Sequence record: SRR20825006_1783
Reading direction: 5' to 3' (one strand)
Length of the DNA stretch: 44,553 bases
Positions within the stretch are counted from its first letter, which is position 1. Every line of letters begins with the position of its first letter. Position numbers and translations under genes: made by a program. A model generated the notes under the pieces. It made no database searches, had not been told where the DNA came from, and worked only from the letters and a program-made list of their open reading frames with translations. Below, piece by piece: positions 14,633 through 35,357 of the stretch.

Positions 14633-14675
14633 ACACGGCCGGAAAGGTCGGAACACACTCAATAGGAGACAGCAA

Positions 14676-17673: not shown

Positions 17674-18240
17674 TCACGGTTTCATCAACACCGAGGCAGA
17701 GGGATAATCCGAGGCCCAAGTGGCAGGAAGAGGCGCAACAAAGACGTTTTCCGTGCGGTTGCGGGTGTAACGCCACGTGCCATCGTCACATTTTTTGAAC
17801 GCATTAAACAGGCGCGAAGAACGCAAAAGCGCTTTGCCGTCGGAGAACAGCCAAGGCTGCATATGGACCCATTGACCCGTTGCAGTCAGGCCGTCGGCGG
17901 CCACGTTGATCTGTTCCGAGGTCAGGTAGTGACAGTTGAGAATCAGCGCCGGATCGGTTTTGCCGCCCCAGAACCCTTCGAAGTGTTTACGCACGGCGGC
18001 TTTGCCTTCGGCGCGGCCAAACTGTCCGGTGTAATATTCGCCAACGCCTTCCCAAACGGCTTCTTCAGAGAAGAGTTCCATAATTAAATCAATACGCTCT
18101 GCATCATCTTTGACGCCATATTCGGGCATCGGCGTGTCGCAAAGAAACATGTAGCGGGATTGTACGCGGCGGACTTCAGCCTCGGCTTCGAGCAGTTCAA
18201 GCCGTTTGGTGAGGGCGGCGATGGTGTCAGAGTCGGTCAT
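17674..18240 (-). CDS. iacI: SnoaL/NTF2-like protein, probable IacI
   Basis: RLELLEAEAEVRRVQSRYMFLCD, LFSEEAVWEG, HYLTSEQI pattern of SnoaL_4/NTF2 proteins; divergent from iacH. Start ATG 18240 with SD GAAAGGA. Name is from context. Confidence 0.7.
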   Translation of the reverse strand: MTDSDTIAALTKRLELLEAEAEVRRVQSRYMFLCDTPMPEYGVKDDAERIDLIMELFSEEAVWEGVGEYYTGQFGRAEGKAAVRKHFEGFWGGKTDPALILNCHYLTSEQINVAADGLTATGQWVHMQPWLFSDGKALLRSSRLFNAFKKCDDGTWRYTRNRTENVFVAPLPATWASDYPSASVLMKP

Positions 18241-18338
18241 GTGCGTCCTTTCGGTTCGGCGCTGTGTCGCGCCTTGGATTTTGAGACAAACCTCGGGCAA
18301 AAATTGAGCTTTGCGGAGGAGTGTTGCCTGCAATTAAA

Positions 18339-18456
18339 GCAGTAAAATTACCGTAAATAGGTTTTACAGCACTCTCCATAAATGCGCAAAGAAATTGTTT
18401 CATCTTTCACTTGACCTGTGACGTAAATACATGAAGATTACTGTAACAGCGTCACG
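18339..18456. promoter_or_regulatory. iacI/iacH divergent promoter with repeated TTAC-N-GTAA palindromes
   Basis: ATTACCGTAA (18347-18356) and ATTACTGTAA (18437-18446); TTGACC -35-like hexamer at 18411-18416; GCAGTAAAA...TTTTACAGC inverted repeat 18339-18370. Confidence 0.5.
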
Positions 18457-18491
18457 CCAGATGACGCCAAAGCCCAAACAGGGACCAGAAA

Positions 18492-19652
18492 ATGAACGCA
18501 CACGCCACCAGCTCTCACGCGCTGGTCCAAGAGCTGTCTATGGGCGGCACTGGGCCAACCGTCGTGATCAAAGATTGCATCGACATTGCCGGCACAGTGA
18601 CGGGCTGTGGCTCGGAAGCCTTTGCTTCTGCCGCGCCAGCCCTTGAAAACGCCGTTGTGGTCGACGCCCTTCTGACGGCCGGATGCCGGATCATCGGCAA
18701 AGCCAATATGCACGAACTGGCCTTTGGAATGACGGGCGTGAATGGCTTTCACGGCACCCCTGTAAACCCCAATTGGCCGGACCGCATTCCCGGAGGATCG
18801 TCGTCCGGGTCCGCCGTCGCCGTGGCCTCGGGCCTATGCGACTTTGCTATTGGCACGGATACCGGCGGATCGGTGCGCCAGCCTGCGATTTGCTGTGGTG
18901 TGATCGGGATCAAGCCCACCTTTGGCCGGATCAGCCGCAAGGGTCTGTCGCCCAAGAACAGCTCGCTTGATTGTGTCGGGGCCTTCGCCCGCGACATGGA
19001 TATGATCGAGACCGCGATGGCGGCAATGGACCCGACCTTCACCCCCGAAACCCTTGTCAACGCTCCCAAATTGACTCGGATCAAATCTGATCCCGTGGCC
19101 GAAGTGGGGGACCCTTTGGTCTATGCCTTGATGGATGCCTATCCGGGCATGGGCTATGAGTGCCTCCCCCATTTTGAAGCGGCGTTTCAGGCTGGAATGA
19201 CGGTGATTTCCTATGAGACCGCCGCCGCGTTTGGGCATTTGCTCGACGAAGGCGCGCCGCTTGGCGCGGATATTCACAAGCGCCTGACGGCGGCACGCCA
19301 CGTGACCGAGGCGCAATTGGCCGAGGCCGAAGCAGTGCGCACCGCGTTTACCGCCGAAGTGGACGCGCTTTTGGAACAGTATGACGCGCTTGTGACGCCG
19401 GCTTTGCCGGTGATTCCGCCGACGCTGAGCGAGGCGCAAGATCCACAAACCATTCTGCCGCTGACGCGTTTTTTGCGTCCGTTTAACCTCAGCGGCCACC
19501 CCGCCATCACCTTGCCCGCGCGCACCAACTCCGGCTTGCCCATCGGGCTGCAATTGGTTGGGCGTAAAGGCGAAGAGGCCCGACTTTGCGCGATTGCGCG
19601 TTGGATCGTCTCCTGTGTTCCCGATTTTCAGTCAAAGGACCAAAGCCAATGA
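18492..19652 (+). CDS. iacH: Amidase-signature family hydrolase, IacH-like
   Basis: Ser-cisSer-Lys triad: VIKDCID, GGSSSGSA, GTDTGGSVRQPA. First gene of the iac operon. Confidence 0.82.
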   Translation: MNAHATSSHALVQELSMGGTGPTVVIKDCIDIAGTVTGCGSEAFASAAPALENAVVVDALLTAGCRIIGKANMHELAFGMTGVNGFHGTPVNPNWPDRIPGGSSSGSAVAVASGLCDFAIGTDTGGSVRQPAICCGVIGIKPTFGRISRKGLSPKNSSLDCVGAFARDMDMIETAMAAMDPTFTPETLVNAPKLTRIKSDPVAEVGDPLVYALMDAYPGMGYECLPHFEAAFQAGMTVISYETAAAFGHLLDEGAPLGADIHKRLTAARHVTEAQLAEAEAVRTAFTAEVDALLEQYDALVTPALPVIPPTLSEAQDPQTILPLTRFLRPFNLSGHPAITLPARTNSGLPIGLQLVGRKGEEARLCAIARWIVSCVPDFQSKDQSQ

Positions 19653-20800
19653 CCTCACTGTCCAAACTCTCCACAAATCAGGCAAATGATGCGCTCTACA
19701 TCTCCGTCTTAGATGAAATCCGTGCCCGTCGGGCCGAGTTTACTCAGCTGCGCCATGTGCCGCTGGATGTGGTGGAGCGGCTGCAACACATTGGCGTCTA
19801 TCGTTCTTTTGTGCCCGCCCGGTTTGGCGGCGATGAGAAAACCCCCGCCGAGTTTTGCCGTCTGATCGAAGACGTCTCTGCCGCGGATGCCTCCACCGGC
19901 TGGGTTGCAAGTTTTGGTGTCTCCGCCACCTATTTGGCGGCGTTGCCGTCGCAGACCTATGCGGAAATCTACGGCAAAGACCCAAACACCGTGTTCGCGG
20001 GCGCAATGTTCCCGCCGCAAAAAGCCGACAAAGTCGATGGCGGGTTCAGGGTCAAAGGCCGCTGGCCGTGGTGCTCTGGCATCATGGGGGCCTCGCTGGT
20101 TGGCGCGGGCATCAAGGTCGAAGGCGATGACACACCGCTGCCTCGTGTGGCCGTGCTGCCCCGCAACAAGGTGTTTGTCGATGAGACATGGAACACCATT
20201 GGCTTGTCTGCGACCGGATCGCATGACGCGGTGGTCGAAGATGTCGTGGTTGCCCCTGAGTGGACCTTTATCCGCGGCGGCAAACCCGAGATGGACGATC
20301 TGATTTTCAAATACCCGGCGATGGCTTTGGCGTCACAGGTTTTGGCCGTCGTGGCCTTGGGCGCCGCACGCGAAGCACTTGATTTCTTGGTGAAAGACGC
20401 TGCCGAGCGTGCCTCGATTACCGGCGCACCGAACCCGGGCGCACGTCCTTATGTGCAGGCCGAATTCGCTAAGGCGCAGGGCATCTTGATGGGCGCACGC
20501 GCCGCGTTTTACGACACGATTGAGGCGGCTTGGGAGCAACTCAAGACCACCGGAGATGTGTCGCAGGACATGAAAATTCGCCTGCGTCTGGTCGCCACAA
20601 AAGCCGCCCGCGATGGCGCAGAGGCGGCCCGTATTGCCTTTGTCATCGGCGGCTCGGGCGTGATGGAAACCGGCCATACCTTGGGCCGTTGCATGGTGGA
20701 CGCGGCTTGTGTCGCGCAACACGCCTTTATGGGCGAAGGCACCTGGACCGCCGCGGGGGCCGGTTTTTTCGACCAACCGACCATGCCTGGCTACCCCTAA
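19649..20800 (+). CDS. iacA: Flavin-dependent indole-3-acetate monooxygenase (acyl-CoA dehydrogenase fold)
   Basis: GVYRSFVP.RFGG, ADASTGWVASFG, VFAGAMFPPQ, GL.ATGSHD, DAACVAQHAFMGEGTW...G; followed by iacB; partner reductase at 24767. Confidence 0.88.
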   Translation: MTSLSKLSTNQANDALYISVLDEIRARRAEFTQLRHVPLDVVERLQHIGVYRSFVPARFGGDEKTPAEFCRLIEDVSAADASTGWVASFGVSATYLAALPSQTYAEIYGKDPNTVFAGAMFPPQKADKVDGGFRVKGRWPWCSGIMGASLVGAGIKVEGDDTPLPRVAVLPRNKVFVDETWNTIGLSATGSHDAVVEDVVVAPEWTFIRGGKPEMDDLIFKYPAMALASQVLAVVALGAAREALDFLVKDAAERASITGAPNPGARPYVQAEFAKAQGILMGARAAFYDTIEAAWEQLKTTGDVSQDMKIRLRLVATKAARDGAEAARIAFVIGGSGVMETGHTLGRCMVDAACVAQHAFMGEGTWTAAGAGFFDQPTMPGYP

Positions 20801-20846
20801 AACACCCAACTGATTGCACGAAATATTTCCGAAAGAGGACGACCCC

Positions 20847-21209
20847 ATGAGCGACCAAAAGCCGATCCGCACTCTGTTGTGCTTTAACAACCATCCGACA
20901 TTTTTCAGCCTGCCGTTTGACCAAATCGGCCCGGTTTGGAAAGCCACCCAAGAGTTGATGTCCGGCATTGACCAGATGGAGGGCGTCGAAATCGTCGGGA
21001 CGTTTGACGACGATCAGACCATGGTGGGGGCTTCCTCTGGCTTTCCATTCACATGGTACATGCTCTGTGATTTCCCGACCCGCGAAGACGTTATGGCCGC
21101 GTGTAACCTGCTGCGCACCATCGTGGTGGGTGAGGGCAATGACCGCCTTTGGAAATACATGACCGTCGAGGCGCGCATGGGCCGCGCTTTGGAAATCCCG
21201 CAACTTTAA
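20847..21209 (+). CDS. iacB: IacB protein
   Basis: 120 aa with the family-specific G.FDDDQTMVG.S.GFP.T.Y.L.D, AACNL.R...VG.G..RLWKY..VEAR.GR.L pattern. SD GAGGA. Confidence 0.88.
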   Translation: MSDQKPIRTLLCFNNHPTFFSLPFDQIGPVWKATQELMSGIDQMEGVEIVGTFDDDQTMVGASSGFPFTWYMLCDFPTREDVMAACNLLRTIVVGEGNDRLWKYMTVEARMGRALEIPQL

Positions 21210-21264
21210 TTTTCCGGGGTGCGCGGTTTCGACGCCATCCTGATGCCACTGAGAAGGAGCTAAC

Positions 21265-22542
21265 ATGTCTCTTGATATGCCAAAGTTCAGTGACCTTGAC
21301 GCACTCTACGACGAAGAGAATGCGCTGGTCGGAACCGCCATGTACGAAGATCCTGATCTCTTTGACGAAGAGATGGAAAAGATTTTCAAAAACACCTGGG
21401 TCTGGATCGCACATGAAAGCGAATTCCCTGACAAAGGCTCGTTCAAACTCTCCAACGTCGGTCTTGAGCCGGTGATCGTGGTGCGCGACCGCAAGGGAAA
21501 AATCCATTGCATGGTCAACCGGTGTCGTCACCGGGCCGCCACCGTCTGTGAAGTCAAAAAGGGCAAGACCTCGTCGTTCCAATGCCCGTATCACGGCTGG
21601 GGCTATGGGCTTGACGGCTCTTTGCGCGCGCTGCCTTACCCGGAACAGTACGGCGATGATTTCGACAAGGCTCAGCATGGTCTGTTGAAACTGCGCACCG
21701 AATCCTACAACGGCATGGTCTTTGCGACCTTCAAAGAGGACATGGAACCGCTCGAAGAGTTTCTGGGCGAGGCCGTGTGTCGCTACATCGACCTGTTCAT
21801 GAAACAGGGCGGTGGCTTCCCGGTCAAAGTGTTGGGCGAGCATCAGTTCACCGTGCCGATGAACTGGAAAGTGCAGTTGGAAAACACCACCGACGCCTAT
21901 CATTTCCCGGTCGTGCACAAGAGCTTTATGCAAACGCTCGACGGCCAGACCGAAGAGATGTTCGACTTTCTCGACAAGGGCAAAGGCTGGGTTGAGGATC
22001 TGGGCAATGGTCACTCGATCATGATGATGATCCCGGAGCTTGAAGACCTCGACGCCAACCTCGGCGCACCGATCCCGGCCCGTTTTGAAGAGCTGGCACA
22101 AGAAATCCGTGACGAAGGCTATCCCGAGGATCAGGTCAAGAAAATCGTCCGCGCCGTGGGCGGGGCGGGGTTCAACCTCAACCTTTTCCCCAACGTGTCC
22201 TTCTCCTTGGCGTTCTTTCGTGTGCTTACGCCGATCTCGGTTGAGCAAACCGACATTCGTCACATCGCCATCGGCATGGACGGCGGCCCGGATGCCGCCA
22301 ACCAAGCGCGGATTCGTCTGCACGAGCATTTCCAAGGGCCGATGGGCTTTGGCTCGCCGGATGACGCCGAAGTGTGGGAGCGCATTCAGCGCGGCACCAA
22401 AGGCGGCGAAGACCTCAAGATCCTCGTGAACCGCGGCATGGTCGATGAGGTCGACGGGCCGAATGGTCCGCGTGGTCACATCTCCGCTGAGACCGGCATG
22501 CGTGCCGCTTACAAAATGTGGAAAGGCTTGATGGCACAATGA
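21265..22542 (+). CDS. iacC: Rieske ring-hydroxylating oxygenase alpha subunit, IacC
   Basis: Rieske motif NRCRH...CPYHGW; mononuclear Fe motif ENTTDAYHFPVVH; GFNLNLFPN, HEHFQGPMGFGSPDD. SD AAGGAG. Confidence 0.9.
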   Translation: MSLDMPKFSDLDALYDEENALVGTAMYEDPDLFDEEMEKIFKNTWVWIAHESEFPDKGSFKLSNVGLEPVIVVRDRKGKIHCMVNRCRHRAATVCEVKKGKTSSFQCPYHGWGYGLDGSLRALPYPEQYGDDFDKAQHGLLKLRTESYNGMVFATFKEDMEPLEEFLGEAVCRYIDLFMKQGGGFPVKVLGEHQFTVPMNWKVQLENTTDAYHFPVVHKSFMQTLDGQTEEMFDFLDKGKGWVEDLGNGHSIMMMIPELEDLDANLGAPIPARFEELAQEIRDEGYPEDQVKKIVRAVGGAGFNLNLFPNVSFSLAFFRVLTPISVEQTDIRHIAIGMDGGPDAANQARIRLHEHFQGPMGFGSPDDAEVWERIQRGTKGGEDLKILVNRGMVDEVDGPNGPRGHISAETGMRAAYKMWKGLMAQ

Positions 22543-23033
22543 CTGAGATGAGCAAAATCGACACCAAATCCCTGTTGGCCGATGTCACAGCTTTCATCTG
22601 GGCCGAAGGCGCGATGCTGGACGCGCGCGAATATGACGAGTGGCTCGACCTGTGGACCGATGACGGCCTCTACATCATGCCGATCGGCGACACGGTGGAT
22701 TTCAAAAACAGCGTCAACCTGTGTTATGACAACGCCAAAATGCGCAAAGATCGCATTGGTCGTTTTCACCAAGGGTTCTCCATCTCGTCCGCGCCACCCG
22801 CTTTGACGGTGCGCACGTTGTCGCGGTTTCGGATCGAGGGCACAGAAGGCGACTTGGTCACCGTGACCTGCGCCGAGCATGTGATCGAGGACAAATTTGG
22901 CCGCCAACGTACTTGGGCGGGCAATATCGCATACACTCTCAAATCCACCGAGGGCGGGTTCAAATTGCACCAAAAGATCATCCGTCTTTTGAACTCTGAT
23001 GGGATGCTGAATTCGTTCAGCTATCTGTTCTGA
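22539..23033 (+). CDS. iacD: Ring-hydroxylating oxygenase beta subunit, IacD
   Basis: FIWAEGAMLD..EYDEWLDLW..DGLYIMPI, YDN..MR..R; ATGA overlap with iacC. Confidence 0.88.
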   Translation: MTEMSKIDTKSLLADVTAFIWAEGAMLDAREYDEWLDLWTDDGLYIMPIGDTVDFKNSVNLCYDNAKMRKDRIGRFHQGFSISSAPPALTVRTLSRFRIEGTEGDLVTVTCAEHVIEDKFGRQRTWAGNIAYTLKSTEGGFKLHQKIIRLLNSDGMLNSFSYLF

Positions 23034-23794
23034 TGAGCGCGCCTCTTCCAGAAAAAATCTCGACCGCAGTGGTCACGGGCGGCGCGCGTGGTTTTGGCGC
23101 GCAGGCGGTCCGGGCACTGCACAAGGCGGGCTACCGTGTGATCATTACCGACGTAAATCCCGGTGAGGAGGCCAAAGCCTTGGCCTCCGAATTGGACCTT
23201 GCTGGGGACACCGCGATCACCGCGACATTGGATGTTTCCAAGCCTGAGGATTTCCAAACCGTGCTCGACAAATGTATCGAACGCTATGGCTCGGTCGAGG
23301 TCCTGGTCAACAACGCCGCGCGCACCGCTGTGCAAAATGTGCTCGACATTGATCCCGCATTTTTCAACGAGGTCATGGCGACAAACGCTGGCGGTACTTT
23401 TGCGGGCTGCCAGATTTTTGGCCGCTATTTCAAAGCGCAAGGCTACGGTCGTATGATCAATATGGCCTCTTTGGCCGGTCAAAACGGCGGCACCGCCACG
23501 GGCGCGCATTATGCCGCCTCCAAAGGTGCGATCCTGACGCTGACCAAAATCTTTGCCCGCGATCTCGCGCCGTTTGGCGTGACCTGCAATGCCATCGCGC
23601 CGGGTCCGATGGACACGCCAATGGTGCGCGCGGTTTTGGGCGACACTATCGACAACGCCATTGCGGGCATCCCGGTCAAAAAACTCGGCGATCCCGACTT
23701 TGTTGCCAAGATGGTTGTCATGTTGGCGGGCCCCGATGCGGGCTTTGTCAACGGCGCCTGTTGGGACGTCAATGGCGGGCTGTATGTGAGGTAA
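23033..23794 (+). CDS. iacE: Short-chain dehydrogenase, IacE
   Basis: TGGARGFG, LVNNAA, SLAGQNGGTATGAHYAASKG, WDVNGG. Confidence 0.88.
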   Translation: MSAPLPEKISTAVVTGGARGFGAQAVRALHKAGYRVIITDVNPGEEAKALASELDLAGDTAITATLDVSKPEDFQTVLDKCIERYGSVEVLVNNAARTAVQNVLDIDPAFFNEVMATNAGGTFAGCQIFGRYFKAQGYGRMINMASLAGQNGGTATGAHYAASKGAILTLTKIFARDLAPFGVTCNAIAPGPMDTPMVRAVLGDTIDNAIAGIPVKKLGDPDFVAKMVVMLAGPDAGFVNGACWDVNGGLYVR

Positions 23795-24762
23795 TGATGA
23801 CCGAAAACAACGCACAAAAGCTAAAGGTCAGCGCCCGAATGGATGACCGTGGCGGGATTTCCCGCATTCGGTTCGTGCCGGAAAACGGCGGGGACATTCT
23901 CCCGTTTGCGGCTGGTGCGCATCTTGATCTCTATTTGCCTGACCTCGATATGTGGCGGCAATATTCGCTCTGCTCCGATCCTGCGGAAACCGGGTTTTAC
24001 GAAATCGGGGTTCTCAAAGACCCGAACAGTCGCGGTGGTTCGCTTAAAGTCCATGAAACGGCTGTGGAGGGCGCGGTGTTCACCGTTGAAGGTCCGCGCA
24101 ATCACTTTCCGTTGGATGAAACGGCCCAGACCACCGTGCTTTTGGGAGGGGGCATTGGCATCACGCCGATGATCGCCATGGCCAAGCGGTTGCACGCCAT
24201 CGGTAAGGACTTCACACTGCATTATTGTACCCGCTCGGCGGATGTGACGGCCTTTCGCGACGCGCTTGAGAGCTGTGGGTTTGCCGACAAGGTGGTGTTT
24301 CACTTTGACGACCAAGACCCCGCACAACGGCTTGATCTCACGCGTGATCTTCCCGCGCCGTCTGCGGCGACCCATCTTTATGTCTGTGGCCCGCAAGGGT
24401 TCATGGATTGGGTCATCGAAACGGCGGAAGCCGCCGGCCATGCCAGTGCCAATGTGCATCGCGAATATTTCTCGGCGGATGTGGACCTCTCGGGCGATAG
24501 CTTTGAAGTCGAGTGCCGCGAAAGTGGCGTGACGCTGACCGTCGGGTCCGATGACACCATCGCCAAAGCTCTGGCGCGTGCGGGCATCAAGGTCGAAGTC
24601 AAATGCGAAGAGGGTGTTTGTGGCACCTGTCTGACGGATGTTCTTGAGGGCGAGATTGATCACCGCGATCAGTTTTTGACCGAAGAGGAACGCGAAGATG
24701 GCGACGTGATGTGCGTCTGTTGCTCGCGGGCCAAAGGTCCAAAACTGGTGCTGGATATTTAA
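23794..24762 (+). CDS. iacF: PDR/VanB-type FMN/[2Fe-2S] reductase, IacF
   Basis: RQYSLCS, SRGGS, GGIGITP, YVCGP.GFM, C-terminal ferredoxin CEEGVCGTC...CCSR. Confidence 0.9.
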   Translation: MMTENNAQKLKVSARMDDRGGISRIRFVPENGGDILPFAAGAHLDLYLPDLDMWRQYSLCSDPAETGFYEIGVLKDPNSRGGSLKVHETAVEGAVFTVEGPRNHFPLDETAQTTVLLGGGIGITPMIAMAKRLHAIGKDFTLHYCTRSADVTAFRDALESCGFADKVVFHFDDQDPAQRLDLTRDLPAPSAATHLYVCGPQGFMDWVIETAEAAGHASANVHREYFSADVDLSGDSFEVECRESGVTLTVGSDDTIAKALARAGIKVEVKCEEGVCGTCLTDVLEGEIDHRDQFLTEEEREDGDVMCVCCSRAKGPKLVLDI

Positions 24763-24766
24763 GGGG

Positions 24767-25276
24767 ATGATGATGGATTTGACTCAAACCCAACAGGATT
24801 TTCGCGAAGGCATGAGCCGCCTTGGTGCCGCTGTGAACCTGATCACCACCGACGGCCCGGCGGGTAAGCATGGCATCACCGCTTCGGCTGTGTGCTCCGT
24901 CACGGACAATCCGCCGACGCTGTTAGTCTGCATCAACACCCGCGCATTTGCCCATGATAAATTCGTGGAAAACGGCGTGCTTGCGGTCAATGTTTTGGCT
25001 GCCGAACACCAAGAGCTTTCGGGCATTTTCGCCCGCTTTGTCGAAGGCGTGGACCGGTTTTCCTTTGGCGATTGGGAGGCGGGTCCTACCGGCGCGCCGA
25101 TGCTGACGGATGCCAATGTCGCGTTCGATTGCCGCATCACCGGCCGCCAAGAAGAGGGCACGCATTCGGTGTTTTTCTGTCAGGTCGAAGAGGTCCGCAT
25201 GAGCGCCAAAGCGCGTCATGGGCTGGTGTGGTTTAGCCGGGATTTCCATCATCTTGTGGCGGAGGAGCAGGCGTGA
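24767..25276 (+). CDS. iacG: Flavin reductase (HpaC/RutF-like), IacG
   Basis: FREGMSRLGAAVNLITTDGPAG, SVTDNPPTLLVC, GTHSVFF. Three consecutive ATGs at the start. Confidence 0.88.
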   Translation: MMMDLTQTQQDFREGMSRLGAAVNLITTDGPAGKHGITASAVCSVTDNPPTLLVCINTRAFAHDKFVENGVLAVNVLAAEHQELSGIFARFVEGVDRFSFGDWEAGPTGAPMLTDANVAFDCRITGRQEEGTHSVFFCQVEEVRMSAKARHGLVWFSRDFHHLVAEEQA

Positions 25277-25290
25277 ACCTCACCTTGAAC

Positions 25291-25761
25291 TCAGATAATC
25301 CGGCCGAGATCCGTTGTGATCTTTTCAAGGATGGTGTTCAGGGTTTTGATCTCTGCGGGCGTGACGTTGTGAAAACTTTCGTCGCGAATGCGGTAAACCT
25401 CATTGAGCGCCTTGGCGCGCAGATCATCACCCTTTTCGGTCAGGCAGACTTCGGTCACGCGCCCGTCCGTGGGGCGCACGCGGGTCTCAACCAAACCATC
25501 GACGATCATGCGCTGAACGATCTTTGTGGTGGTGTTGAGTTTGAGGGTGGAAAAATCCGCAACCTCGGAGACCGACATGTAGTCCTGTTGGTACAGCGAG
25601 ATCAGAACGCGCCAGCGTGGCGCATCGACACCCAGGGGTTTGAGCCGTCTTTCGAGTGCGCGCGTGTAAAAGGCGTTGACCCGGTTGATCCAAAAATAGG
25701 GCCATGTATCACGGAAATGATCGGGTTTTTGGGACTCTTCGGGGGGCGCTATTTTTGTCAT
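25291..25761 (-). CDS. iacR: MarR-family repressor, IacR-like
   Basis: WPYFWINRV..FYTRALERRLKPLGVD.PRWRVL, TTTKIVQRM..DGLV, DGRVTEV.LT. ATG 25761 preceded by SD GGAGAG. Confidence 0.82.
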   Translation of the reverse strand: MTKIAPPEESQKPDHFRDTWPYFWINRVNAFYTRALERRLKPLGVDAPRWRVLISLYQQDYMSVSEVADFSTLKLNTTTKIVQRMIVDGLVETRVRPTDGRVTEVCLTEKGDDLRAKALNEVYRIRDESFHNVTPAEIKTLNTILEKITTDLGRII

Positions 25762-25907
25762 TATCGGTCTCTCCAAGTCCCGTTTTCGTCGCGTGGATTA
25801 TAGAATAACACATATGTATCAGTATGATGCGGTGATTTTTCCAATAACTAAAGAACTCCCCGCGAAGGGCGTCATACCATCAAAATGCACCAATAGGGAA
25901 TGTGAAA

Positions 25908-26930
25908 ATGAACATGAAACTTAAAAAGATCGCCGCCACGGCGACAACCATCGCACTCTTCTCTGGCGCGGCGTTTGCCGACACGGTTCTCACCATGAAC
26001 AGCTGGCTGCCCCCGACCCATCCGCAAGTGGCGGAGTTGTTCGTGCCATGGGCGTCGGACATTGAAAAAGTCACCGAAGGTCGCGTTAAAATCAACATCT
26101 TGCCCGCTCCGCTTGGCCCGCCCCCCGCGGCGTTTGATTTGGCCAAAAACGGCATCGCCGACATCACGTATTCGGTGCATGGCTACACGCCGGGTCGGTT
26201 TAAGACCTCCGTTTTGGGGGAGATGCCGTTCCTTTCCGATGATGCCGTGGCCACGTCTGTTGCCTTTTGGAGGGTTCAAGACGCGATGCTGAAAGACGCG
26301 GGCGAATACGACGGCGTTAAGGTTTTGACCGTGTTCACCCATGGCCCTGGCGAGATTTTCTCGCGCAAACCCATTGAGACCGCAGAAGATGTGTCGGGTC
26401 AAAAAATCCGTATCGGGTCCACTATGGCGCATGACATTGCGACCAATCTGGGGGCGGTTCCGGTCGAAGGCCCGTCGTCCAAAGCCTATGAGCTTTTGAG
26501 CCAAGGTGTCGCGGACGGGATTTTCTTTCCCTTTGAAACAGTAACCTTTTTTAGCCTCGAAGACATCTTGGACTATGGCTACACCGTGAAAGGCGGGCTT
26601 TATAATTCCGCCATGTTCGTGGTCATGAATGAAGCCAAATGGAACAGCATTTCGGCTGAGGACCAGGCCCTCATCGAACCTCTTTTGGGCGAAGCTTTCG
26701 CGCGTCGTGCGGGCGAAATGTGGAATGCTGCCGACGCCAAGGGTCGGGCTGAGATGGAGGGAAAAATCACCATCAAAGCTGCCTCTGACGAGGAGGTAGC
26801 CGCGCTCAAGACCCGTCTTGCGCCGATTGTGGAAGAGCGGATCGCGCAGATCACAGAAGCGGGTGTCGATGGTCAAGCGGCCTATGACATGATGCTGTCC
26901 GAGATCGCTAAAATCGAGTCTGAAAAATGA
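25908..26930 (+). CDS. dctP: TRAP substrate-binding protein (aromatic-acid type)
   Basis: Signal peptide; SWLPPTHP, TEGRVKI, GYTPGRF, HGPG, KIRIG, YELLSQGVADG. Divergent from iacR. Confidence 0.9.
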   Translation: MNMKLKKIAATATTIALFSGAAFADTVLTMNSWLPPTHPQVAELFVPWASDIEKVTEGRVKINILPAPLGPPPAAFDLAKNGIADITYSVHGYTPGRFKTSVLGEMPFLSDDAVATSVAFWRVQDAMLKDAGEYDGVKVLTVFTHGPGEIFSRKPIETAEDVSGQKIRIGSTMAHDIATNLGAVPVEGPSSKAYELLSQGVADGIFFPFETVTFFSLEDILDYGYTVKGGLYNSAMFVVMNEAKWNSISAEDQALIEPLLGEAFARRAGEMWNAADAKGRAEMEGKITIKAASDEEVAALKTRLAPIVEERIAQITEAGVDGQAAYDMMLSEIAKIESEK

Positions 26931-27448
26931 TGAACCTGTCCGAACTCATTGCCGGGCATCACGAGGATGGGCTGCCGCGCGCGGTGGCCCGACCTTTTCA
27001 CCATGTGATTGCTTGGCTTTGCGCCGTGCTGTTGATCCTGATGATGGGCTTGACCGTCTTCGACGTGTTGGGGCGCTATTTGGTGAATGCGCCGGTGCCG
27101 GGGTCGACGGAACTGACCGAAATGCTCTTGGCCGCGATCATTTTTTTGGGTCTCCCGGCGGCGAGCCTTGACCGGGAACATGTGACGGTCGATCTCTTTA
27201 TTGACCGCCTGCCGGATTGGATCAATCGGCTGCGTGAACCTGTGGTTTTGCTGATGTCGGCGGGTGTGCTTGGCGTCATTGCCTGGCGTCTTTGGATCAC
27301 TGCGGCTCAGGTCGCCAGCTATGGCGGCACCACTGCGACATTGGAACTGCCCGTGGCCCCCATCGGGTATCTTGCCTCTTCCCTGACTTGGGTCGCGGTG
27401 GCACTCACCCTAGCCGAAGTCTTTTATCGCCCGAAAAAGGAGGCCTGA
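26927..27448 (+). CDS. dctQ: TRAP small permease
   Basis: DVLGRY..NAPVPGS.ELTE, HVTVDLF; 4 TM. Confidence 0.9.
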   Translation: MMNLSELIAGHHEDGLPRAVARPFHHVIAWLCAVLLILMMGLTVFDVLGRYLVNAPVPGSTELTEMLLAAIIFLGLPAASLDREHVTVDLFIDRLPDWINRLREPVVLLMSAGVLGVIAWRLWITAAQVASYGGTTATLELPVAPIGYLASSLTWVAVALTLAEVFYRPKKEA

Positions 27449-28752
27449 TGATGGCTCAACTTATGGCCCATTGGGAATTCGGGACGCTTGTCCTCTTTAT
27501 CCTGTTGTTTCTTGGCGTTCCGATTTCCTTTGCCTTGGCTCTGATCGGCACGGCGGGCACGGCGGCCATCATTGGCTGGTCCCCATCTTTTTCGCTTTTG
27601 GGGCAAACCTATTTCGAACACAGCCGCAGCTATTCGCTGTCGATCCTGCCGCTGTTTTTGATGATGGGGAATTTCGTGGTGCAATCGGGCATCGCGCGCG
27701 ATCTCTATTCTGCGGCTTACGCATGGCTTCGCCATCGCAAGGGCGGGTTGGCCGTGGCGACCGTTGTGGCCTGTGGTGGGTTTTCGTCGGTCTGCGGATC
27801 GTCCTTGGCGACCGCGTCGACCATGGCAAAAATCGCCCTGCCGAACATGCGTAAATTTGGTTACCCGGACAGTCTTTCGACCGCCTCCATCGCGGCGGGG
27901 GGCACCTTGGGCATCCTGATTCCGCCGTCCGTGATCTTGGTGTTTTACGGCATCATGACCCAGCAAGACATCGGCAAGCTGTTCCTCGCGGGCATCCTTC
28001 CGGGCATTTTGGGGGTGATCCTATATGCGCTTGCGGTTCGGATTTCGGTCCATTTTGGCAAGTTTGATTTGCCGATTGAGGCCAAGCTTCCGCTTAAGGA
28101 TCGCGTCATCGCCCTCAAAGGGGTCGCTGGGGCGCTTGGGCTGTTTGCCTTTGTCATGGGTGGCATTTATTTTGGCGTGTTCACCCCAACGGAAAGTGCC
28201 GGTATGGGGGCTGGGGGTGCGTTCCTTTTGGTGCTGTTGCAAGGGCGCCTGACCGTGACCAAAACGCTTGTCACCCTTTATGAGACGGCCAAAACCACAG
28301 CGATGATGTTCTTCATCCTGTTTGGCGCGCTCACATTCGCCAACTACGTCAACCTGTCCGGGATGAGCCGCGACATTCAGGTCTTGGTCACCTCCGTGGG
28401 CGATCACCCTTTGGCGGTGATTGGGATCATCACGGTGATTTACCTGATCCTTGGCTGTGTCCTTGAGGGCCTGTCGATGATCACGCTCACCGTCCCGATC
28501 TTTTATCCCATCGTCGCTGCGCAAGGGTTCGATCTGATTTGGTTTGGCATCTATGTCGTGATCGTCACTGAGGTGAGCTATATCACCCCGCCCGTTGGCC
28601 TAAACGCTTTCGTCCTCAAATCCGTGGTCAAAGACGTGCAGCTCAGCACGATCTTTCGCGGTCTTGGGCCTTTCCTTTTGGTGGATGTGTTGCGCGTGAT
28701 CTTGATCCTCGCGTTTCCGGCGCTCGTCTTGTTCGTTCCCAACATGATGTAG
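27448..28752 (+). CDS. dctM: TRAP large permease
   Basis: LGVPISFAL, CGSSLATASTM, AAGGTLGILIPPS, ITPPVGLN. SD AAGGAGG. Confidence 0.92.
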   Translation: MMAQLMAHWEFGTLVLFILLFLGVPISFALALIGTAGTAAIIGWSPSFSLLGQTYFEHSRSYSLSILPLFLMMGNFVVQSGIARDLYSAAYAWLRHRKGGLAVATVVACGGFSSVCGSSLATASTMAKIALPNMRKFGYPDSLSTASIAAGGTLGILIPPSVILVFYGIMTQQDIGKLFLAGILPGILGVILYALAVRISVHFGKFDLPIEAKLPLKDRVIALKGVAGALGLFAFVMGGIYFGVFTPTESAGMGAGGAFLLVLLQGRLTVTKTLVTLYETAKTTAMMFFILFGALTFANYVNLSGMSRDIQVLVTSVGDHPLAVIGIITVIYLILGCVLEGLSMITLTVPIFYPIVAAQGFDLIWFGIYVVIVTEVSYITPPVGLNAFVLKSVVKDVQLSTIFRGLGPFLLVDVLRVILILAFPALVLFVPNMM

Positions 28753-28767
28753 TGCGCTCACACCAAC

Positions 28768-28805
28768 TGCGGCGGGTCGTCCGGCAAGAGGCCCGCCGCA
28801 TTTTT
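28768..28805 (+). terminator. Intrinsic terminator-like hairpin after the second TRAP operon
   Basis: TGCGGCGGGTC-N11-GGCCCGCCGCA followed by TTTTT. Confidence 0.7.
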
Positions 28806-28839
28806 CTGTGCACTTGCCGTCCTGAGAGTTTGAAAATCC

Positions 28840-29898
28840 ATGAAAGACTTCACCTATCTGTCTCATCCGCGCCGTGTCCTTTTTGCGTCGGGCGCGCGCC
28901 GATCTCTTGGGGATGAACTCGATCGGTTGGGGATCACGCATCCGCTGATTTTGACCACACCACATCAAGAAAACGCCGTCGATGATCTGACTGAGGGGCT
29001 CATGGGGCGGAACTGGTCGCAGTTTTCCGGTGCTGCCATGCACACGCCGATAGAGGTCACCAAAGAGGCGCTGCGCAGCTATGAAAAGAGCAGCGCGGAT
29101 GGGGTTGTCTCCATCGGCGGCGGGTCGACCATCGGTTTGGGCAAAGCGCTTGCGGTGCGCCAAGGCTGTGCACACATCAGCCTGCCGACGACCTATTCCG
29201 GTTCTGAGATGACCGACATTTTGGGCGAAACCGATGGTGGTCAGAAAGTGACCCGTCGCGATGCCAAAATCCGTCCCGATACGGTGATTTATGATGTCGA
29301 TTTGACGCTGGGGCTGCCGGTCGGGCTTTCGGGGCTTTCGGGGATAAACGCCATGGCCCACGCGGTTGAGGCACTTTATGCCCCGGATGCCAATCCGGTC
29401 AGCGACCTCATGGCGCTGGAGGCCATCGGCGTTTTGGCCGAGGCGCTGCCAAAGCTCGCGGATGCGCCGCGAGACGCCGATATCCGCGCTCAATTGTTCT
29501 ACGGTTCGTGGCTCTGCGGTCTTTGTCTTGATAGCGCGGCGATGTCTCTGCACCACAAGATTTGCCACACGCTGGGTGGCAGTTTTGATTTGCCCCATGC
29601 CGAAACGCATACGGTCATGTTGCCGCATTCGCTTGCCTATAACGCCCCGGCGATTGCTCCGGTGATGGCGCGTTTGACATCTGTGCTTGGGGCCGATCCG
29701 GCACAGGCAATTTTTGATCTGTCCGGTCGTTTGGGGGCGCCACGCGCGCTGTCCGATCTGGGGATGCCCGAAAGTGGGATCGGCAAAGCGGCGCAGGTGG
29801 CGCTGAAAAGCCCCTATGCCAATCCTCGTCCGCTCGAAGAGGCGGCTTTGAGCGCGATGTTGACGCGCGCCTGGCATGGCGAGGCCCCGCAGTCATAA
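28840..29898 (+). CDS. Maleylacetate reductase (iron-containing alcohol dehydrogenase family)
   Basis: AAMHTP, GGGSTIGLGKA, PTTYSGSEMT, SGINAMAHAVEALY, MSLHHKICHTLGGSFDLPHAETHT, PYANPRP are MAR signature motifs. Confidence 0.92.
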   Translation: MKDFTYLSHPRRVLFASGARRSLGDELDRLGITHPLILTTPHQENAVDDLTEGLMGRNWSQFSGAAMHTPIEVTKEALRSYEKSSADGVVSIGGGSTIGLGKALAVRQGCAHISLPTTYSGSEMTDILGETDGGQKVTRRDAKIRPDTVIYDVDLTLGLPVGLSGLSGINAMAHAVEALYAPDANPVSDLMALEAIGVLAEALPKLADAPRDADIRAQLFYGSWLCGLCLDSAAMSLHHKICHTLGGSFDLPHAETHTVMLPHSLAYNAPAIAPVMARLTSVLGADPAQAIFDLSGRLGAPRALSDLGMPESGIGKAAQVALKSPYANPRPLEEAALSAMLTRAWHGEAPQS

Positions 29899-29922
29899 CC
29901 AAGTTTGGGAGGAGACGCTGAT

Positions 29923-30762
29923 ATGAGTGGCTATTTTGAAGAGAGTAAATCCGTAGAGGTGGTGAACGGCCGTATGGGCACGGATGTGCCGGAGCGGTTG
30001 GCCACGGTGATGCGCGCGCTGGTTGCGCATCTGCACGCGTTTGTCAAAGACGTGGAGCTGACCGAAGAGGAATGGGGCAAGGCGATCGAATTCCTCACCA
30101 GCACGGGCCAAATTTGTTCCGGTGAACGCCAGGAATTCATCCTGCTGTCGGATGTTTTGGGCGTGTCGATGTTGGTTGACGCGATCCAGAACCGCAAACC
30201 AAAGGGTGCGACGCCCTCCACCGTGTTTGGTCCGTTTCACGTTGAAGGCGCGCCAGAGCGTCCTATGGGCTTTGACATTTCACTGGACGGAAAAGGGGAA
30301 CGATGCCTGTTTGAAGGTCGGATTCTGGACATCGACGGCACTCCGATTGAGGGGGCTGTGATTGACGTGTGGTCCGACAATGCGGAGGGCTTTTACGATG
30401 TGCAACAGCCCGATATTCAGCCCAAATGGAACAATCGCGGGGTGTTTAAAACCGGGCCCGATGGGCGCTACTGGTTCTACGGGATCAAGCCGGTGTCCTA
30501 TCCGATCCCTGATGACGGCCCGGTTGGGCAAATGCTGGGCCATATCGGGCGGCATCCGTTCCGCCCGGCGCACACCCATTTTCGCGTGGTGGCGGAGGGC
30601 TATAAGCCGTTGATCACCCATACATTTGTGGCGGGCGACCCCTATCTTGAGGGCGATACGGTTTTTGGCGTGAAAGGCGATCTGATCGTTGATTTCGTCC
30701 AAGAGGATGAAGGCGAACGGACCGGAGAGTGGACGGCGCGGTTTGATTTTGTTTTGGTCTGA
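29923..30762 (+). CDS. Intradiol ring-cleavage dioxygenase, hydroxyquinol 1,2-dioxygenase type
   Basis: Fe ligands in FYDVQ, YPIP, RPAHTH. HQD-type residues RQEFILLSDVLG, TVFGPF, LITH, DTVFGVK. SD GGAGGAG, ATG 29923. Confidence 0.88.
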   Translation: MSGYFEESKSVEVVNGRMGTDVPERLATVMRALVAHLHAFVKDVELTEEEWGKAIEFLTSTGQICSGERQEFILLSDVLGVSMLVDAIQNRKPKGATPSTVFGPFHVEGAPERPMGFDISLDGKGERCLFEGRILDIDGTPIEGAVIDVWSDNAEGFYDVQQPDIQPKWNNRGVFKTGPDGRYWFYGIKPVSYPIPDDGPVGQMLGHIGRHPFRPAHTHFRVVAEGYKPLITHTFVAGDPYLEGDTVFGVKGDLIVDFVQEDEGERTGEWTARFDFVLV

Positions 30763-30785
30763 TCCAGAGCGACAGTTTCCACGAC

Positions 30786-30812
30786 AAAGGGGCGCCGTAA
30801 GGCGCCCCTTTT
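30786..30812. terminator. Bidirectional intrinsic terminator between the dioxygenase and tctA
   Basis: Perfect AAAGGGGCGCC-GTAA-GGCGCCCCTTT. Confidence 0.88.
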
Positions 30813-30829
30813 GCATTTCAGCTCAGTCT

Positions 30830-32314
30830 TTAATGCGCTATTTTCAAGCGATGATTTTGGATGGCCGCGCGGATTGAGGAGGCGATGATCACCACGATAA
30901 CGATGGCAAGGAACGCCGCAATCGGTCGGTCTACAAAGTCCAGCGGGCTGGTGACGCGGGCCATGGCGGCGCGGAGTTTGACCTCCATGATATTGCCCAA
31001 AACCATGCCAAGGATGATCGGAACCACCGGAAGGTGGAGCCGTTTGAGGATCAGCCCAAGCACCCCGAAGGCGGCGGCAATGGCGCAATCCACGGCGGAG
31101 TTGCGCAGCGAATAGACGCCGACAAAACTCAGCATCAGGATCATCATCCCCAAGAACCGCGTGGGGATGCGGATCAACCGGATCAGCCAGTTGGAGGAGA
31201 CCAGCATAAACAGAATGACGATCACGTTGAGCGCCAAAAGCGCGATGTAGAGCGCGTAGATAAAGTCGATATGATCGCGGAACAGCGCCGGGCCGGGCAC
31301 CACGTTGTGGACGTAGAACACCGACAACATCATCGCGGTCAACGCCTCGCCGGGGATGCCAAGCGCCAAAAGCGGGATCATCGCGGCGGCGGGCACGGCG
31401 TTGTTGGCGGATTCGGAGGCGACGAGGCCTTCTTCGGAGCCTTTTCCGAATTTTTCAGGCGTCTTGGACCGTTTGCGTGCCAGAGTGTAGCTCATGAATT
31501 GCGCGGTGAATTCGCCGACGCCGGGGATCATCCCCATAACCACACCAAAGAATGATCCGGTGGCGGCAACGCGTTTGTATTTGAGCACGCCGAGCATCTC
31601 TTTGCCCATGCCGCCTTTGACCGGGGCGGCGTCTGGGGCGCTTTCTGGATCGACGAGTAAGGAGAAGGCCTGAGAGATCGCGAACAGACCCAAAACCACC
31701 ACAATCAGGTCGAGACCAGAGGTCAGCCAGTCTTGGCCAAAGGTGAAGCGCATGGTGTATTTCACCGGCTCCATGCCAACGGATTGCAATAAAATCCCCA
31801 GACCTGCCATCATGCCCGCCGCCGCGATCTGGCCGCGGTGAGCGACGATGACCAAAACGATGCCAAGCAGGGCCGCAAGGAAGATTTCGCGCGCGCCAAA
31901 CATCGGGGCGATTTTGGCCAAGAGCGGCGACAACAGGATCAAGGCGAGGATCGATAGGATGCCGCTGAAAAATGACGCGCCATAGGCAAGGCCGAGCGCT
32001 TTGGTCGCCTCGCCGCGTTGGGTCATCGGGTAACCGTCATAGGTGGTCAGTGCGTTCACCGCCGTACCCGGCGTGTTGATCAAAACGGCGGGCAGCGATC
32101 CCCCAAACATCGAAGACCCGTAAATCCCCAACAGCATCACCAACCCAACCAGCGGCGGCAAGGCAAAGGTGGCGGGGAGTAGGATTGCGATCGCCACAGC
32201 GGGGCCAACGCCCGGAATGGCCCCGATGACCACGCCGCCAATGGAACCAATCATGAGGGCCACCAAGACGTCGAAACTCATCAGGAGGGAAAGACCGGAA
32301 AGAAGCGCATCCAT
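30830..32314 (-). CDS. tctA: Tripartite tricarboxylate transporter large permease
   Basis: GAIPGVGP, INTPGT..N.LTTYDGYPM, FGKGSEEGL.ASESANNA, PLLALGIPG. Confidence 0.92.
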   Translation of the reverse strand: MDALLSGLSLLMSFDVLVALMIGSIGGVVIGAIPGVGPAVAIAILLPATFALPPLVGLVMLLGIYGSSMFGGSLPAVLINTPGTAVNALTTYDGYPMTQRGEATKALGLAYGASFFSGILSILALILLSPLLAKIAPMFGAREIFLAALLGIVLVIVAHRGQIAAAGMMAGLGILLQSVGMEPVKYTMRFTFGQDWLTSGLDLIVVVLGLFAISQAFSLLVDPESAPDAAPVKGGMGKEMLGVLKYKRVAATGSFFGVVMGMIPGVGEFTAQFMSYTLARKRSKTPEKFGKGSEEGLVASESANNAVPAAAMIPLLALGIPGEALTAMMLSVFYVHNVVPGPALFRDHIDFIYALYIALLALNVIVILFMLVSSNWLIRLIRIPTRFLGMMILMLSFVGVYSLRNSAVDCAIAAAFGVLGLILKRLHLPVVPIILGMVLGNIMEVKLRAAMARVTSPLDFVDRPIAAFLAIVIVVIIASSIRAAIQNHRLKIAH

Positions 32315-35135: not shown

Positions 35136-35357
35136 CCGAGGGTGTTTTGCGCGACATGCGGGCAATCTGATCATGTGTGCCGCGCGGGGATTCGCTATGG
35201 GTGGCCATGGAAAATGCGCCACAACATCAAAGCGCTTAAATTTCGCGCAGACCTTAGAAAAACCCGCACAGAGATTGGAATCCTTGAAGATAAAGGGGTT
35301 CCGCGATGGCTGCGCCTAAATTGAAAATGCCGCTGCAGCGTGTGGATAAGGCTCGGA

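Follow-up and report, generated by a model that had tools for sequence, protein, structure and literature searches.

Gene content of the locus

A stretch of marine bacterial DNA of 44,553 nucleotides from sequence record SRR20825006_1783, called the window throughout, carries a cluster of genes of the iac type, which are known for the breakdown of indole-3-acetate (IAA). The cluster is followed, on the same strand, by a TRAP transporter and then by genes for a maleylacetate reductase (MAR) and a hydroxyquinol-type intradiol dioxygenase (HQD). The original prediction, made from the letters alone, had noted these two enzymes next to iac, and this observation was borne out: both genes follow iac and TRAP on one strand, and bit scores against PDB structures support their identities. 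The region from iac to HQD, 18492-30762, shows no compositional break, with GC content of 54-63% along the whole window.

The genes of this region are listed below. Percent identities are to L107 and L108, two Pseudomonas loci with the usual iac gene set, and come from tblastn with the window proteins, unless another comparison is named. The loci and genomes used for comparison are numbered with the prefixes L and G.

17674-18333, minus strand, divergent from iacH: SnoaL_4-domain protein, IacI-like, in a clade-specific form (Pfam SnoaL_4, 48.9 bits; 37-38%)
18492-19652, plus strand: iacH, amidase-signature family (NCBIfam amidase PRK08310, 288 bits, below cut-off; 49-50%)
19586-20800, plus strand: iacA, flavin-dependent monooxygenase of the acyl-CoA-dehydrogenase fold (HsaA-type monooxygenase, 154.8 bits; Pfam Acyl-CoA_dh_2; 51-52%); coordinates are those of the open reading frame (ORF) as listed, and homology begins near residue 40
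20814-21209, plus strand: iacB-like small protein (46-49% to the gene after iacA; 78-90% in many alphaproteobacterial loci; no match in Pfam and NCBIfam family scans)
21265-22542, plus strand: iacC, Rieske dioxygenase alpha subunit (66-67%; nearest NCBIfam families HcaE, 212 bits, and anthranilate 1,2-dioxygenase large subunit, 205 bits, both below cut-off)
22518-23033, plus strand: iacD, Rieske dioxygenase beta subunit (small-subunit NCBIfam families, below cut-off; 44-45%)
23033-23794, plus strand: iacE, short-chain dehydrogenase/reductase (NCBIfam; 46-48%)
23761-24762, plus strand: iacF, ferredoxin reductase (NCBIfam; 52-55%)
24767-25276, plus strand: iacG, flavin reductase (NCBIfam; 49%)
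25273-25803, plus strand: ORF of 176 amino acids after iacG, without a family
25902-26930, plus strand: TRAP subunit DctP (NF037995, 72 bits, cut-off 50)
26927-27448, plus strand: TRAP subunit DctQ, part of the TRAP transporter at 25902-28752
27292-28752, plus strand: TRAP subunit DctM, homology from residue 72 of the ORF (TIGR00786, 294.8 bits, cut-off 268)
28840-29898, plus strand: MAR (Pfam Fe-ADH and ADH_Fe_C; PDB 3hl0, 3w5s, 3jzd)
29905-30762, plus strand, probable start ATG 29923: HQD (Pfam Dioxygenase_N, 109 bits, and Dioxygenase_C, 131 bits)

Homologues of iacA through iacI are all present, clustered, at 37-67% identity to the two Pseudomonas loci. This match in gene content justifies calling the cluster iac-like. 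The nearest named families of IacA are the phenol-to-catechol hydroxylases HsaA and HPA hydroxylase. The SnoaL_4 protein is 65-88% identical across loci on the window's side of the IacC tree described below, and only 31-41% identical to the gene that lies between iacB and iacC in other loci. The 176-amino-acid ORF has no Pfam or NCBIfam match even at E = 1 and falls into unnamed clusters only in a protein atlas; copies of 30-93% identity occupy the same position in many related loci.

Identity of the reductase and the dioxygenase

The MAR protein was compared with solved structures. It aligns over its full length (residues 1-351) with three solved maleylacetate reductases, at 362 bits (3hl0), 359 bits (3w5s) and 351 bits (3jzd). 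The next structure, 3iv7, scores 247 bits, and other iron-dependent alcohol dehydrogenases score at most 112 bits. No NCBIfam model reaches its cut-off. By similarity, this member of the Fe-ADH family is a maleylacetate reductase.

The dioxygenase scores 434 bits against 8r2x, which was deposited as 6-chlorohydroxyquinol 1,2-dioxygenase, 262 bits against PnpC (3n9t), 245 bits against the Nocardioides hydroxyquinol enzyme (1tmx), and 235 and 225 bits against 8r2v and 8r2w. Its scores against chlorocatechol and catechol 1,2-dioxygenases are only 111-145 bits, and it stays below the cut-offs of all three NCBIfam catechol and chlorocatechol models. In an alignment with 1tmx the iron ligands Y164, Y199, H223 and H225 are identical. 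So are all 11 of the pocket residues compared (L80, D83, V107, F108, G109, P110, F111, I201, P202, R220 and V253), which we take to set 1TMX apart from catechol dioxygenases; a literature look-up for confirmation found nothing. The hydroxyquinol-type residues that the original prediction had read from the translation (EFILLSD, TVFGPF, LITH and DTVFG) are all present in the alignments. Judged from its sequence, the dioxygenase is clearly of the hydroxyquinol type.

A hydroxyquinol dioxygenase and a maleylacetate reductase together make a complete route from 1,2,4-trihydroxybenzene through maleylacetate to 3-oxoadipate, and they have no use after catechol cleavage. In the window the spacing between the two genes is 7-24 nt, the larger value being measured from the MAR stop to the probable HQD start at ATG 29923, which is preceded by a good ribosome-binding site, GGGAGGAG. 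The 24-nt gap and the ribosome-binding site mark MAR and HQD as a tight pair.

Linkage of the pair to iac in other bacteria

Ten IacC proteins were aligned, and the alignment served as the query against one genome of each species. The scan gave 560 confirmed matches, of which the best 80 were taken with 10-kb flanks. Once five loci that duplicated loci from the window's own genus had been dropped, the comparison set comprised 88 IacC loci other than the window. MAR together with a hydroxyquinol-type dioxygenase of 58-72% identity was found within the flanks of about 10 kb in 27 of these 88 loci; in two of the 27 MAR is incomplete, lying at the locus edge in L034 and in pieces in L082. Among the rest, a second type of dioxygenase is present instead in 5 of the 88, and neither type in 56. 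Five gene orders were found in the linked loci:

Order 1, window's genus (Celeribacter group): iac-TRAP-MAR-HQD
Order 2, Litorisediminicola, Tropicibacter, Sagittula and Phaeobacter: MAR-HQD-TctCBA-aldehyde dehydrogenase on one strand, then SnoaL and iac
Order 3, Rhizobium, Allorhizobium, Ciceribacter and one Paracoccus: MAR-HQD-aldehyde dehydrogenase, then SnoaL and iac
Order 4, Azospirillum: the genes of order 3 on the strand opposite to iac
Order 5, Halomonas and Larsenimonas (Halomonadaceae): iacHABCDEF(G)-SnoaL-MAR-HQD in one row

The SnoaL_4 gene lies on the same strand as MAR-HQD in Halomonadaceae, 23-105 nt from MAR, and in Azospirillum, with about 1.3-1.6 kb between SnoaL and MAR. IacC proteins of Halomonadaceae are up to 84% identical to those of alphaproteobacteria.

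A tree of IacC was built with 88 rows (a quick IQ-TREE run with LG+G4, SH-aLRT support only and midpoint rooting; L082 was omitted, its IacC match being split). On the window's side of this tree 27 of 60 rows are linked to the pair with the window counted (26 of 59 without it), as against 0 of 28 on the other side. Flanks are incomplete for about six of the 29 loci that are unlinked on the window's side. The other 28 rows are a Pseudooceanicola-type group (13 rows, support 97) and a group from betaproteobacteria and Pseudomonas (15 rows, support 100). The association of MAR and HQD with iac exceeds chance. The idea that linked IacC proteins would form a distinct clade held in part: all of them lie on one side of the tree, but they do not form a clean clade within it. 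Early branches on the window's side are linked, namely Azospirillum, Halomonadaceae, Allorhizobium and a Paracoccus locus (L044).

A tree of the dioxygenases (42 rows) is broadly congruent with the IacC tree. The window's HQD is sister to the Sagittula-type iac-linked enzymes with weak support (83). A paralogue from the window's genus that is not linked to iac nests among the iac-linked dioxygenases, so the iac-linked enzymes are no special subfamily.

Whole genomes were also searched, in a small and taxonomically confounded check of ten. Where the iac cluster on the window's side of the tree is unlinked, a dioxygenase of 57-69% identity was found elsewhere in the genome in 5 of 5 cases, versus 0 of 5 genomes from the other side with a dioxygenase of at least 50% identity (best 35-43%).

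Comparison within the genus

IacC orthologues of full length and 81-100% identity occur in 14 of the 33 genomes of the genus that were searched; a sample of 28 more distant genomes contained none. The core of SnoaL, iacHABCDEFG and TRAP is common to all 13 of the genus's other iac loci, and the small ORF after iacG is in place in 11 of them. The iac-adjacent type of dioxygenase (85-100% identity) occurs in five genus genomes, and in all five it stands beside iac.

The paralogous dioxygenase, 66-69% identical, is present in eight genus genomes (L111-L118), independently of iac. It has its own MAR (50-53% identity) in seven of the eight loci: in four, MAR and HQD are arranged around a branched-chain-type ABC transporter, in the order MAR-ABC-HQD, and in the remaining three MAR is on the opposite strand at a distance of about 7.5 kb. 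Counting any hydroxyquinol-type dioxygenase, 9 of 14 iac-bearing genomes have one versus 2 of 19 iac-free genomes of the genus; these genomes are kin, and the counts, being small and taxonomically confounded, do not amount to a statistical test.

Two genomes are informative about other routes. G033 (96% complete) has iac and the pair, and its only other intradiol genes are two adjacent pcaHG-like matches; neither a second-type dioxygenase nor a cycloisomerase match was found in it. G003 (99% complete) has iac, and no hydroxyquinol dioxygenase, MAR orthologue or cycloisomerase above cut-off was found there.

Some genomes hold partial sets of iac genes. Second loci in two genus genomes (L029 and L030) carry iacC (63% identity), iacD, iacF, iacG, SnoaL (87-88%), iacH (49%) and a distant iacA-like gene (37-38%), with no iacB or iacE homologue in either locus. 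In the otherwise complete genome G016, contig 1 holds an IacC fragment only, at 384754-385284 (residues 28-204, 88% identity), which is probably the remnant of a lost cluster.

The catechol branch

The original prediction had noted that muconate cycloisomerase (catB) and muconolactone isomerase (catC) are missing from the window. For catB this stood, since tblastn found no homologue in the window; catC was searched in the nearest genome, G001, and in that genome only, where the CatC model TIGR03221 gave no match. A second-dioxygenase query had a single tblastn match in the window, which is HQD itself.

G001 (4.3 Mb, 100% complete) holds the 12.3-kb region from iac to HQD at 100% identity. It has four intradiol-family genes: two adjacent pcaHG-like genes, the iac-adjacent enzyme, and a second enzyme on contig 1. 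The second enzyme belongs to a locus (L015; contig 1, 303000-322999) in which positions 10340-14646 also hold a cycloisomerase gene, a gene for a 129-amino-acid protein, an alpha/beta hydrolase that is weakly enol-lactonase-like, and a LysR gene. G001:C1:315521-316624 encodes a protein of the muconate/chloromuconate-cycloisomerase family, with 380 bits against TIGR02534 (cut-off 335). The search for catBC elsewhere in the genome, which had been suggested, thus turned up a catB-like gene and no muconolactone isomerase.

The second dioxygenase scores about 200 bits against hydroxyquinol enzymes versus 93-116 bits against catechol enzymes. It is below all NCBIfam cut-offs and keeps 10 of the 11 pocket residues, F108 being replaced by L. 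No dioxygenase in G001 reaches an NCBIfam catechol 1,2-dioxygenase cut-off. The 129-amino-acid protein beside the hydrolase is SCP2-like and unlike CatC. This locus was considered as an ordinary cat operon and rejected as such, given the missing CatC, the SCP2-like neighbour and the hydroxyquinol-like pocket residues. The only MAR orthologue in G001 is the iac-adjacent one, and the genome has several CoA-transferase genes of the pcaI/scoA family.

The second type of dioxygenase is itself found next to iac in five loci (L036, L038, L045, L053 and L093). Its neighbours there include the 129-amino-acid protein and the hydrolase in L036, L038 and L093, a cycloisomerase-family gene in L038, L045, L053 and L093, and LysR in four of the five.

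Transcription signals and expression

MAR is on the same strand as iac and TRAP and starts 88 nt past DctM. Two hairpins and one candidate regulator lie around the pair:

28768-28805, plus strand: GC-rich hairpin and T-run, terminator-like, between the DctM stop at 28752 and the MAR start at 28840 (fold -35.6 kcal/mol, z -1.97)
30786-30815, no strand assigned: strong hairpin and T-run between the convergent HQD and tctA genes, an end of a transcription unit (fold -30.6 kcal/mol, z -3.27)
34107-35135, plus strand: AraC-family regulator, QhpR-like (235 bits, cut-off 250)

The hairpin between DctM and MAR is kept in 4 of 4 other linked loci of the genus, with a weak T-run in two. It was seen by folding; a scan for consensus promoters and terminators overlooked it and found sites no commoner than in shuffled sequence.

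Seawater RNA libraries were searched for relatives of the window. In two runs of one study (X3 and X4), assembled contigs from a relative of about 93% identity span the whole cluster (18000-31000) and bridge the gap between DctM and MAR. What these contigs establish is that a wild relative has the genes in the same order; they prove neither a single transcript nor transcription. Their depth varies several-fold between pieces, and two other RNA runs (X5 and X7) gave scattered short pieces only.

No match to the MarR-family regulator IacR was found among the window ORFs scanned, a set that left out some small ORFs. The AraC gene, 3.3 kb downstream of the pair, is therefore proposed as a candidate regulator. 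AraC genes of 41-45% identity adjoin MAR or the aldehyde dehydrogenase in six Rhizobiaceae loci (L052, L054, L056, L058, L061 and L096).

Proposed role of the pair

MAR and HQD quite probably work with these iac clusters: five architectures in several bacterial orders, with none in the other branch of the IacC tree, would not readily arise by chance or from one hitch-hiking event. As to how they do so, we lean, with some reserve, towards the following reading. MAR-HQD would be a functionally linked lower-pathway module of a distinct iac branch (Rhodobacterales, Rhizobiaceae, Azospirillum and Halomonadaceae), and it would widen the range of substrates that the cluster can fully mineralise, so as to include ring-hydroxylated IAA, while leaving the catechol route in place.

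In the proposed pathway, an aryl-acetaldehyde dehydrogenase, perhaps with a GMC oxidoreductase, would supply an indole-3-acetate-type acid. Going by homology, IacA/G, IacE/B, IacCDF, IacH and the SnoaL-like protein would then strip the heterocycle and the side chain from the benzene ring. A ring with an extra hydroxyl would emerge as 1,2,4-trihydroxybenzene. HQD and MAR, by homology to the solved enzymes, would open it to maleylacetate and convert that to 3-oxoadipate, which products of the CoA-transferase-family genes present elsewhere in the genome may carry to central metabolism. Plain IAA would still pass through catechol to the second intradiol dioxygenase and cycloisomerase locus.

The pair has no use after catechol cleavage, so a trihydroxybenzene would have to arise. 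Its third hydroxyl most likely comes from a ring-hydroxylated substrate (5- or 6-hydroxy-indole-3-acetate) taken by promiscuous Iac enzymes. The Rieske step of the Iac pathway probably takes the nitrogen and the side chain off two neighbouring carbons of the ring. On chemical grounds a hydroxyl at position 5 or 6 would then end para or meta to one of these carbons, which would give 1,2,4-trihydroxybenzene. A ring-hydroxylated (5- or 6-hydroxy) or methoxy IAA, as the original prediction had it, is chemically consistent as a substrate. PMC12502551 hypothesises that ring-substituted IAA serves as a substrate of Iac enzymes and is turned into substituted catechols, and PMC7225977 describes a wide substrate scope for IacA and IacE.

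That the pair is an accessory which extends the cluster to substituted substrates, and not its sole exit, is suggested by the occurrence of identical Iac enzymes with or without the pair, by iac-bearing genomes without a hydroxyquinol route, and by the second ring-cleavage locus in G001.

A number of observations weigh against this reading. The loci of the wider comparison, being the best 80 of 560 matches, are a non-random sample, and the branch that divides the IacC tree into its two sides has an SH-aLRT support of only 77 in a quick tree. On the window's side, no fewer than 11 changes of the linkage label are needed within the 60 rows. Some loci with the pair (L058, L061) and some without it (L052, L056, L096) have near-identical IacC proteins, and so there is no sign that the Iac enzymes diverged for another substrate. 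Five loci of the same branch adjoin the other dioxygenase type, and the linked loci showed no hydroxylase other than those of the usual Iac set. In the genus, the pair is next to iac in only 5 of the 14 iac-bearing genomes. The slot after TRAP holds MAR and the dioxygenase in five of these (with the window's type counted), an ApbA-family reductase in five and unrelated genes in four. At E <= 1e-30, a hydroxyquinol-type dioxygenase is absent from five of the 14 (G003, G009, G019, G020 and G024). Three of these five (G003, G024 and G019) were searched for MAR as well and have no orthologue, the best match being 32-36% identical. The ten-genome check and the co-occurrence counts are, as said, small and confounded. 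The hairpin before MAR has a T-run, ATTTTTCT, behind it, which suggests that transcription may stop, at least partly, upstream of MAR. In G001 a catechol route may exist through the second dioxygenase and the cycloisomerase, which speaks against the pair as an obligatory link. Finally, a search of the literature turned up no experimental work on this organism or any of the linked loci.

Alternative explanations

It could be supposed that this iac branch makes hydroxyquinol from IAA itself, with IacA or the branch-specific SnoaL_4 protein adding the ring hydroxyl, in which case MAR and HQD would be the main exit and catechol would not be a product. The linkage on early branches (Azospirillum, Halomonadaceae, Allorhizobium and Paracoccus L044) would fit, as would the SnoaL_4 gene standing beside MAR-HQD on the same strand in Halomonadaceae and Azospirillum, its low identity (31-41%) to the IacI-position gene of other loci, and the kinship of IacA with HsaA and HPA hydroxylase, which turn phenols into catechols. 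G033 has no other candidate ring-cleavage route save its two adjacent pcaHG-like matches, and the absence from G001 of any dioxygenase above an NCBIfam catechol 1,2-dioxygenase cut-off points the same way. However, the five genus genomes without a hydroxyquinol-type dioxygenase (three of three searched also being without MAR) keep the SnoaL_4 gene and an IacC of 81-91% identity. The other dioxygenase type is present in five loci of this branch, together with a cycloisomerase as a rule, there is no extra oxygenase gene, and catechol is reported as the product of the iac clusters studied (PMC9613470). We regard this explanation as unlikely. A broader claim, that the whole iac branch (Rhodobacterales, Rhizobiaceae, Azospirillum and Halomonadaceae) ends in hydroxyquinol and maleylacetate and not in catechol, whether through ring-hydroxylated indole-acetates or through a branch-specific component such as SnoaL_4, can be put forward only tentatively.

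The pair might instead have no functional link to iac. MAR and HQD would then serve hydroxyquinol from resorcinol, hydroxybenzoates and the like, and would travel with iac in a mobile block of aromatic catabolism. Such a history would explain the terminator-like hairpin before MAR, the patchy presence among close relatives, the recent gain or loss of the pair while the Iac proteins stayed the same (L052 compared with L058), and the variable slot after the TRAP genes, filled in five genomes by the ApbA-family reductase with or without a class II aldolase and in four by unrelated genes. The IacC identity of up to 84% between Halomonadaceae and alphaproteobacteria points to horizontal transfer of a block, and many of the linked loci may share one ancestral arrangement. 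It is harder to square with five gene orders, one of which has MAR-HQD inserted in the operon-like iac row of Halomonadaceae, or with the 0 of 28 linked rows on the other side of the tree. In the genus, too, the window's type of dioxygenase always stands beside iac (5 of 5), and no hydroxylase that would produce hydroxyquinol was found among the window ORFs scanned. This explanation, too, seems improbable. Far less credible still is that HQD acts as the catechol 1,2-dioxygenase of the canonical pathway from IAA to catechol, with MAR in another role. The genome's lack of a dioxygenase above the NCBIfam catechol 1,2-dioxygenase cut-offs would leave room for such an enzyme, but HQD scores two to three times closer to solved hydroxyquinol enzymes, its pocket residues match 1TMX, it is always paired with MAR, which in established pathways has no role after muconate, and no cycloisomerase is nearby.

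Flanking transport, feeder and orphan genes

Further genes lie on both sides of the region:

5502-7013, plus strand: aryl-acetaldehyde dehydrogenase, StyD-like (NF045735 phenylacetaldehyde dehydrogenase StyD, 663 bits, cut-off 850; PDB 4qyj, 535 bits, and 4o5h, 513 bits)
7170-8834, plus strand: GMC-family oxidoreductase (Pfam GMC_oxred_N and GMC_oxred_C; choline-dehydrogenase subfamily, 506 bits, cut-off 605)
30830-32314, minus strand: TctA (Pfam TctA)
32326-32865, minus strand: TctB (Pfam TctB)
32956-33891, minus strand: TctC (Pfam TctC)

The aldehyde dehydrogenase is probably a feeder enzyme that turns an aryl-acetaldehyde into an indole-3-acetate-type acid; its likeness to phenylacetaldehyde dehydrogenases fits such an aldehyde-to-acid step. 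Homologues of 67-74% identity adjoin MAR-HQD or the SnoaL gene in Rhizobiaceae, Azospirillum, Paracoccus and Sagittula-type loci. The GMC oxidoreductase next to it could possibly perform the preceding step from alcohol to aldehyde, and its homologues adjoin iac in two loci (L039 and L056). The three Tct genes make up a tripartite transporter, and their homologues (76-79% identity for TctC and TctA, 53-54% for TctB) stand between HQD and the aldehyde dehydrogenase, all on one strand, in four loci (L033, L034, L035 and L086).

A branched-chain-type ABC transporter at 8821-13523, between the GMC gene and the first TRAP system, is missing in a close relative (G032), where the GMC gene abuts DctP.

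Two adjacent ORFs of 740 and 194 amino acids lie beside the AraC gene on the minus strand (35195-38011). Neither has a Pfam or NCBIfam match even at E = 1. Homologues of the larger (38-57% identity) occur by an AraC gene near iac in L037, L038, L039 and L096, and homologues of the smaller (32-40%) in L037 and L039. From this distribution, the two may form an unknown two-protein system tied to this iac branch.

Relation to known systems and significance

The lower pathways of resorcinol, 4-nitrophenol and chlorophenol degradation use the same pair of enzymes, a hydroxyquinol dioxygenase and a maleylacetate reductase. In those pathways a phenol hydroxylase encoded next to the pair makes the hydroxyquinol, whereas in the window the only upstream oxygenases are the Iac enzymes.

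The canonical iac cluster is of the Pseudomonas putida 1290 type, which takes IAA to catechol, and the window shares homologues of all its genes from iacA to iacI at the identities given above (as measured against L107 and L108). The window differs in having no MarR-type IacR among the ORFs scanned and an AraC gene nearby, in a SnoaL-like gene that is divergent and displaced, and in its TRAP and Tct transporters. P. putida 1290 is reported to have catechol genes near iac (PMC6624763), where the window has MAR and HQD instead. The early iac chemistry leads from IAA to oxindole-acetate and dioxindole-acetate, followed by the Rieske step (PMC9613470), and is presumably shared by the window cluster.

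The iac clusters of Marinomonas MWYL1 and NFXS50 are also marine and hold extra uncharacterised genes. The listing in PMC11373566 (Table 1) includes an ApbA-family 2-dehydropantoate reductase and a class II aldolase. An ApbA/ketopantoate-reductase-family gene follows DctM in five relatives of the window within the genus (L018, L021, L026, L027 and L028), with a class II aldolase next in two; the window has MAR and HQD in that slot. In Marinomonas, genes for catechol 1,2-dioxygenase, muconolactone isomerase and muconate cycloisomerase are located elsewhere on the chromosome, and a MAR or hydroxyquinol gene goes unmentioned (PMC11373566).

The iad locus of Variovorax and Bradyrhizobium, which takes IAA to anthranilate, resembles the window in its IacC/D-like Rieske components and in aerobic IAA degradation (PMC9613470). 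The window differs from it in having the iac-type set with iacA, iacB and iacE, and in having neither a MarR pair nor the anthranilate route. Two aerobic routes of auxin breakdown are described in the same paper, iac to catechol and iad to anthranilate. A literature search found no description of iac genes linked to maleylacetate reductase or to hydroxyquinol cleavage, and published locus maps may show the linkage without comment.

If this iac branch as a whole ends in hydroxyquinol and not in catechol, bacteria would have a third aerobic outlet for auxin. Should ring-hydroxylated indole-acetates be what feeds it, candidate food sources would be 5-hydroxy-indole-acetate from serotonin-type amines and 6-hydroxy-IAA from plants. 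The finding also offers a way into the little-understood conversion of dioxindole-acetate to the ring product. If an iac branch that is large and associated with plants and algae is wired to hydroxyquinol, either its natural substrates include hydroxylated auxin-like molecules or the late Iac steps differ in this branch. Either outcome would alter the interpretation of iac genes in metagenomes from the rhizosphere and the sea.

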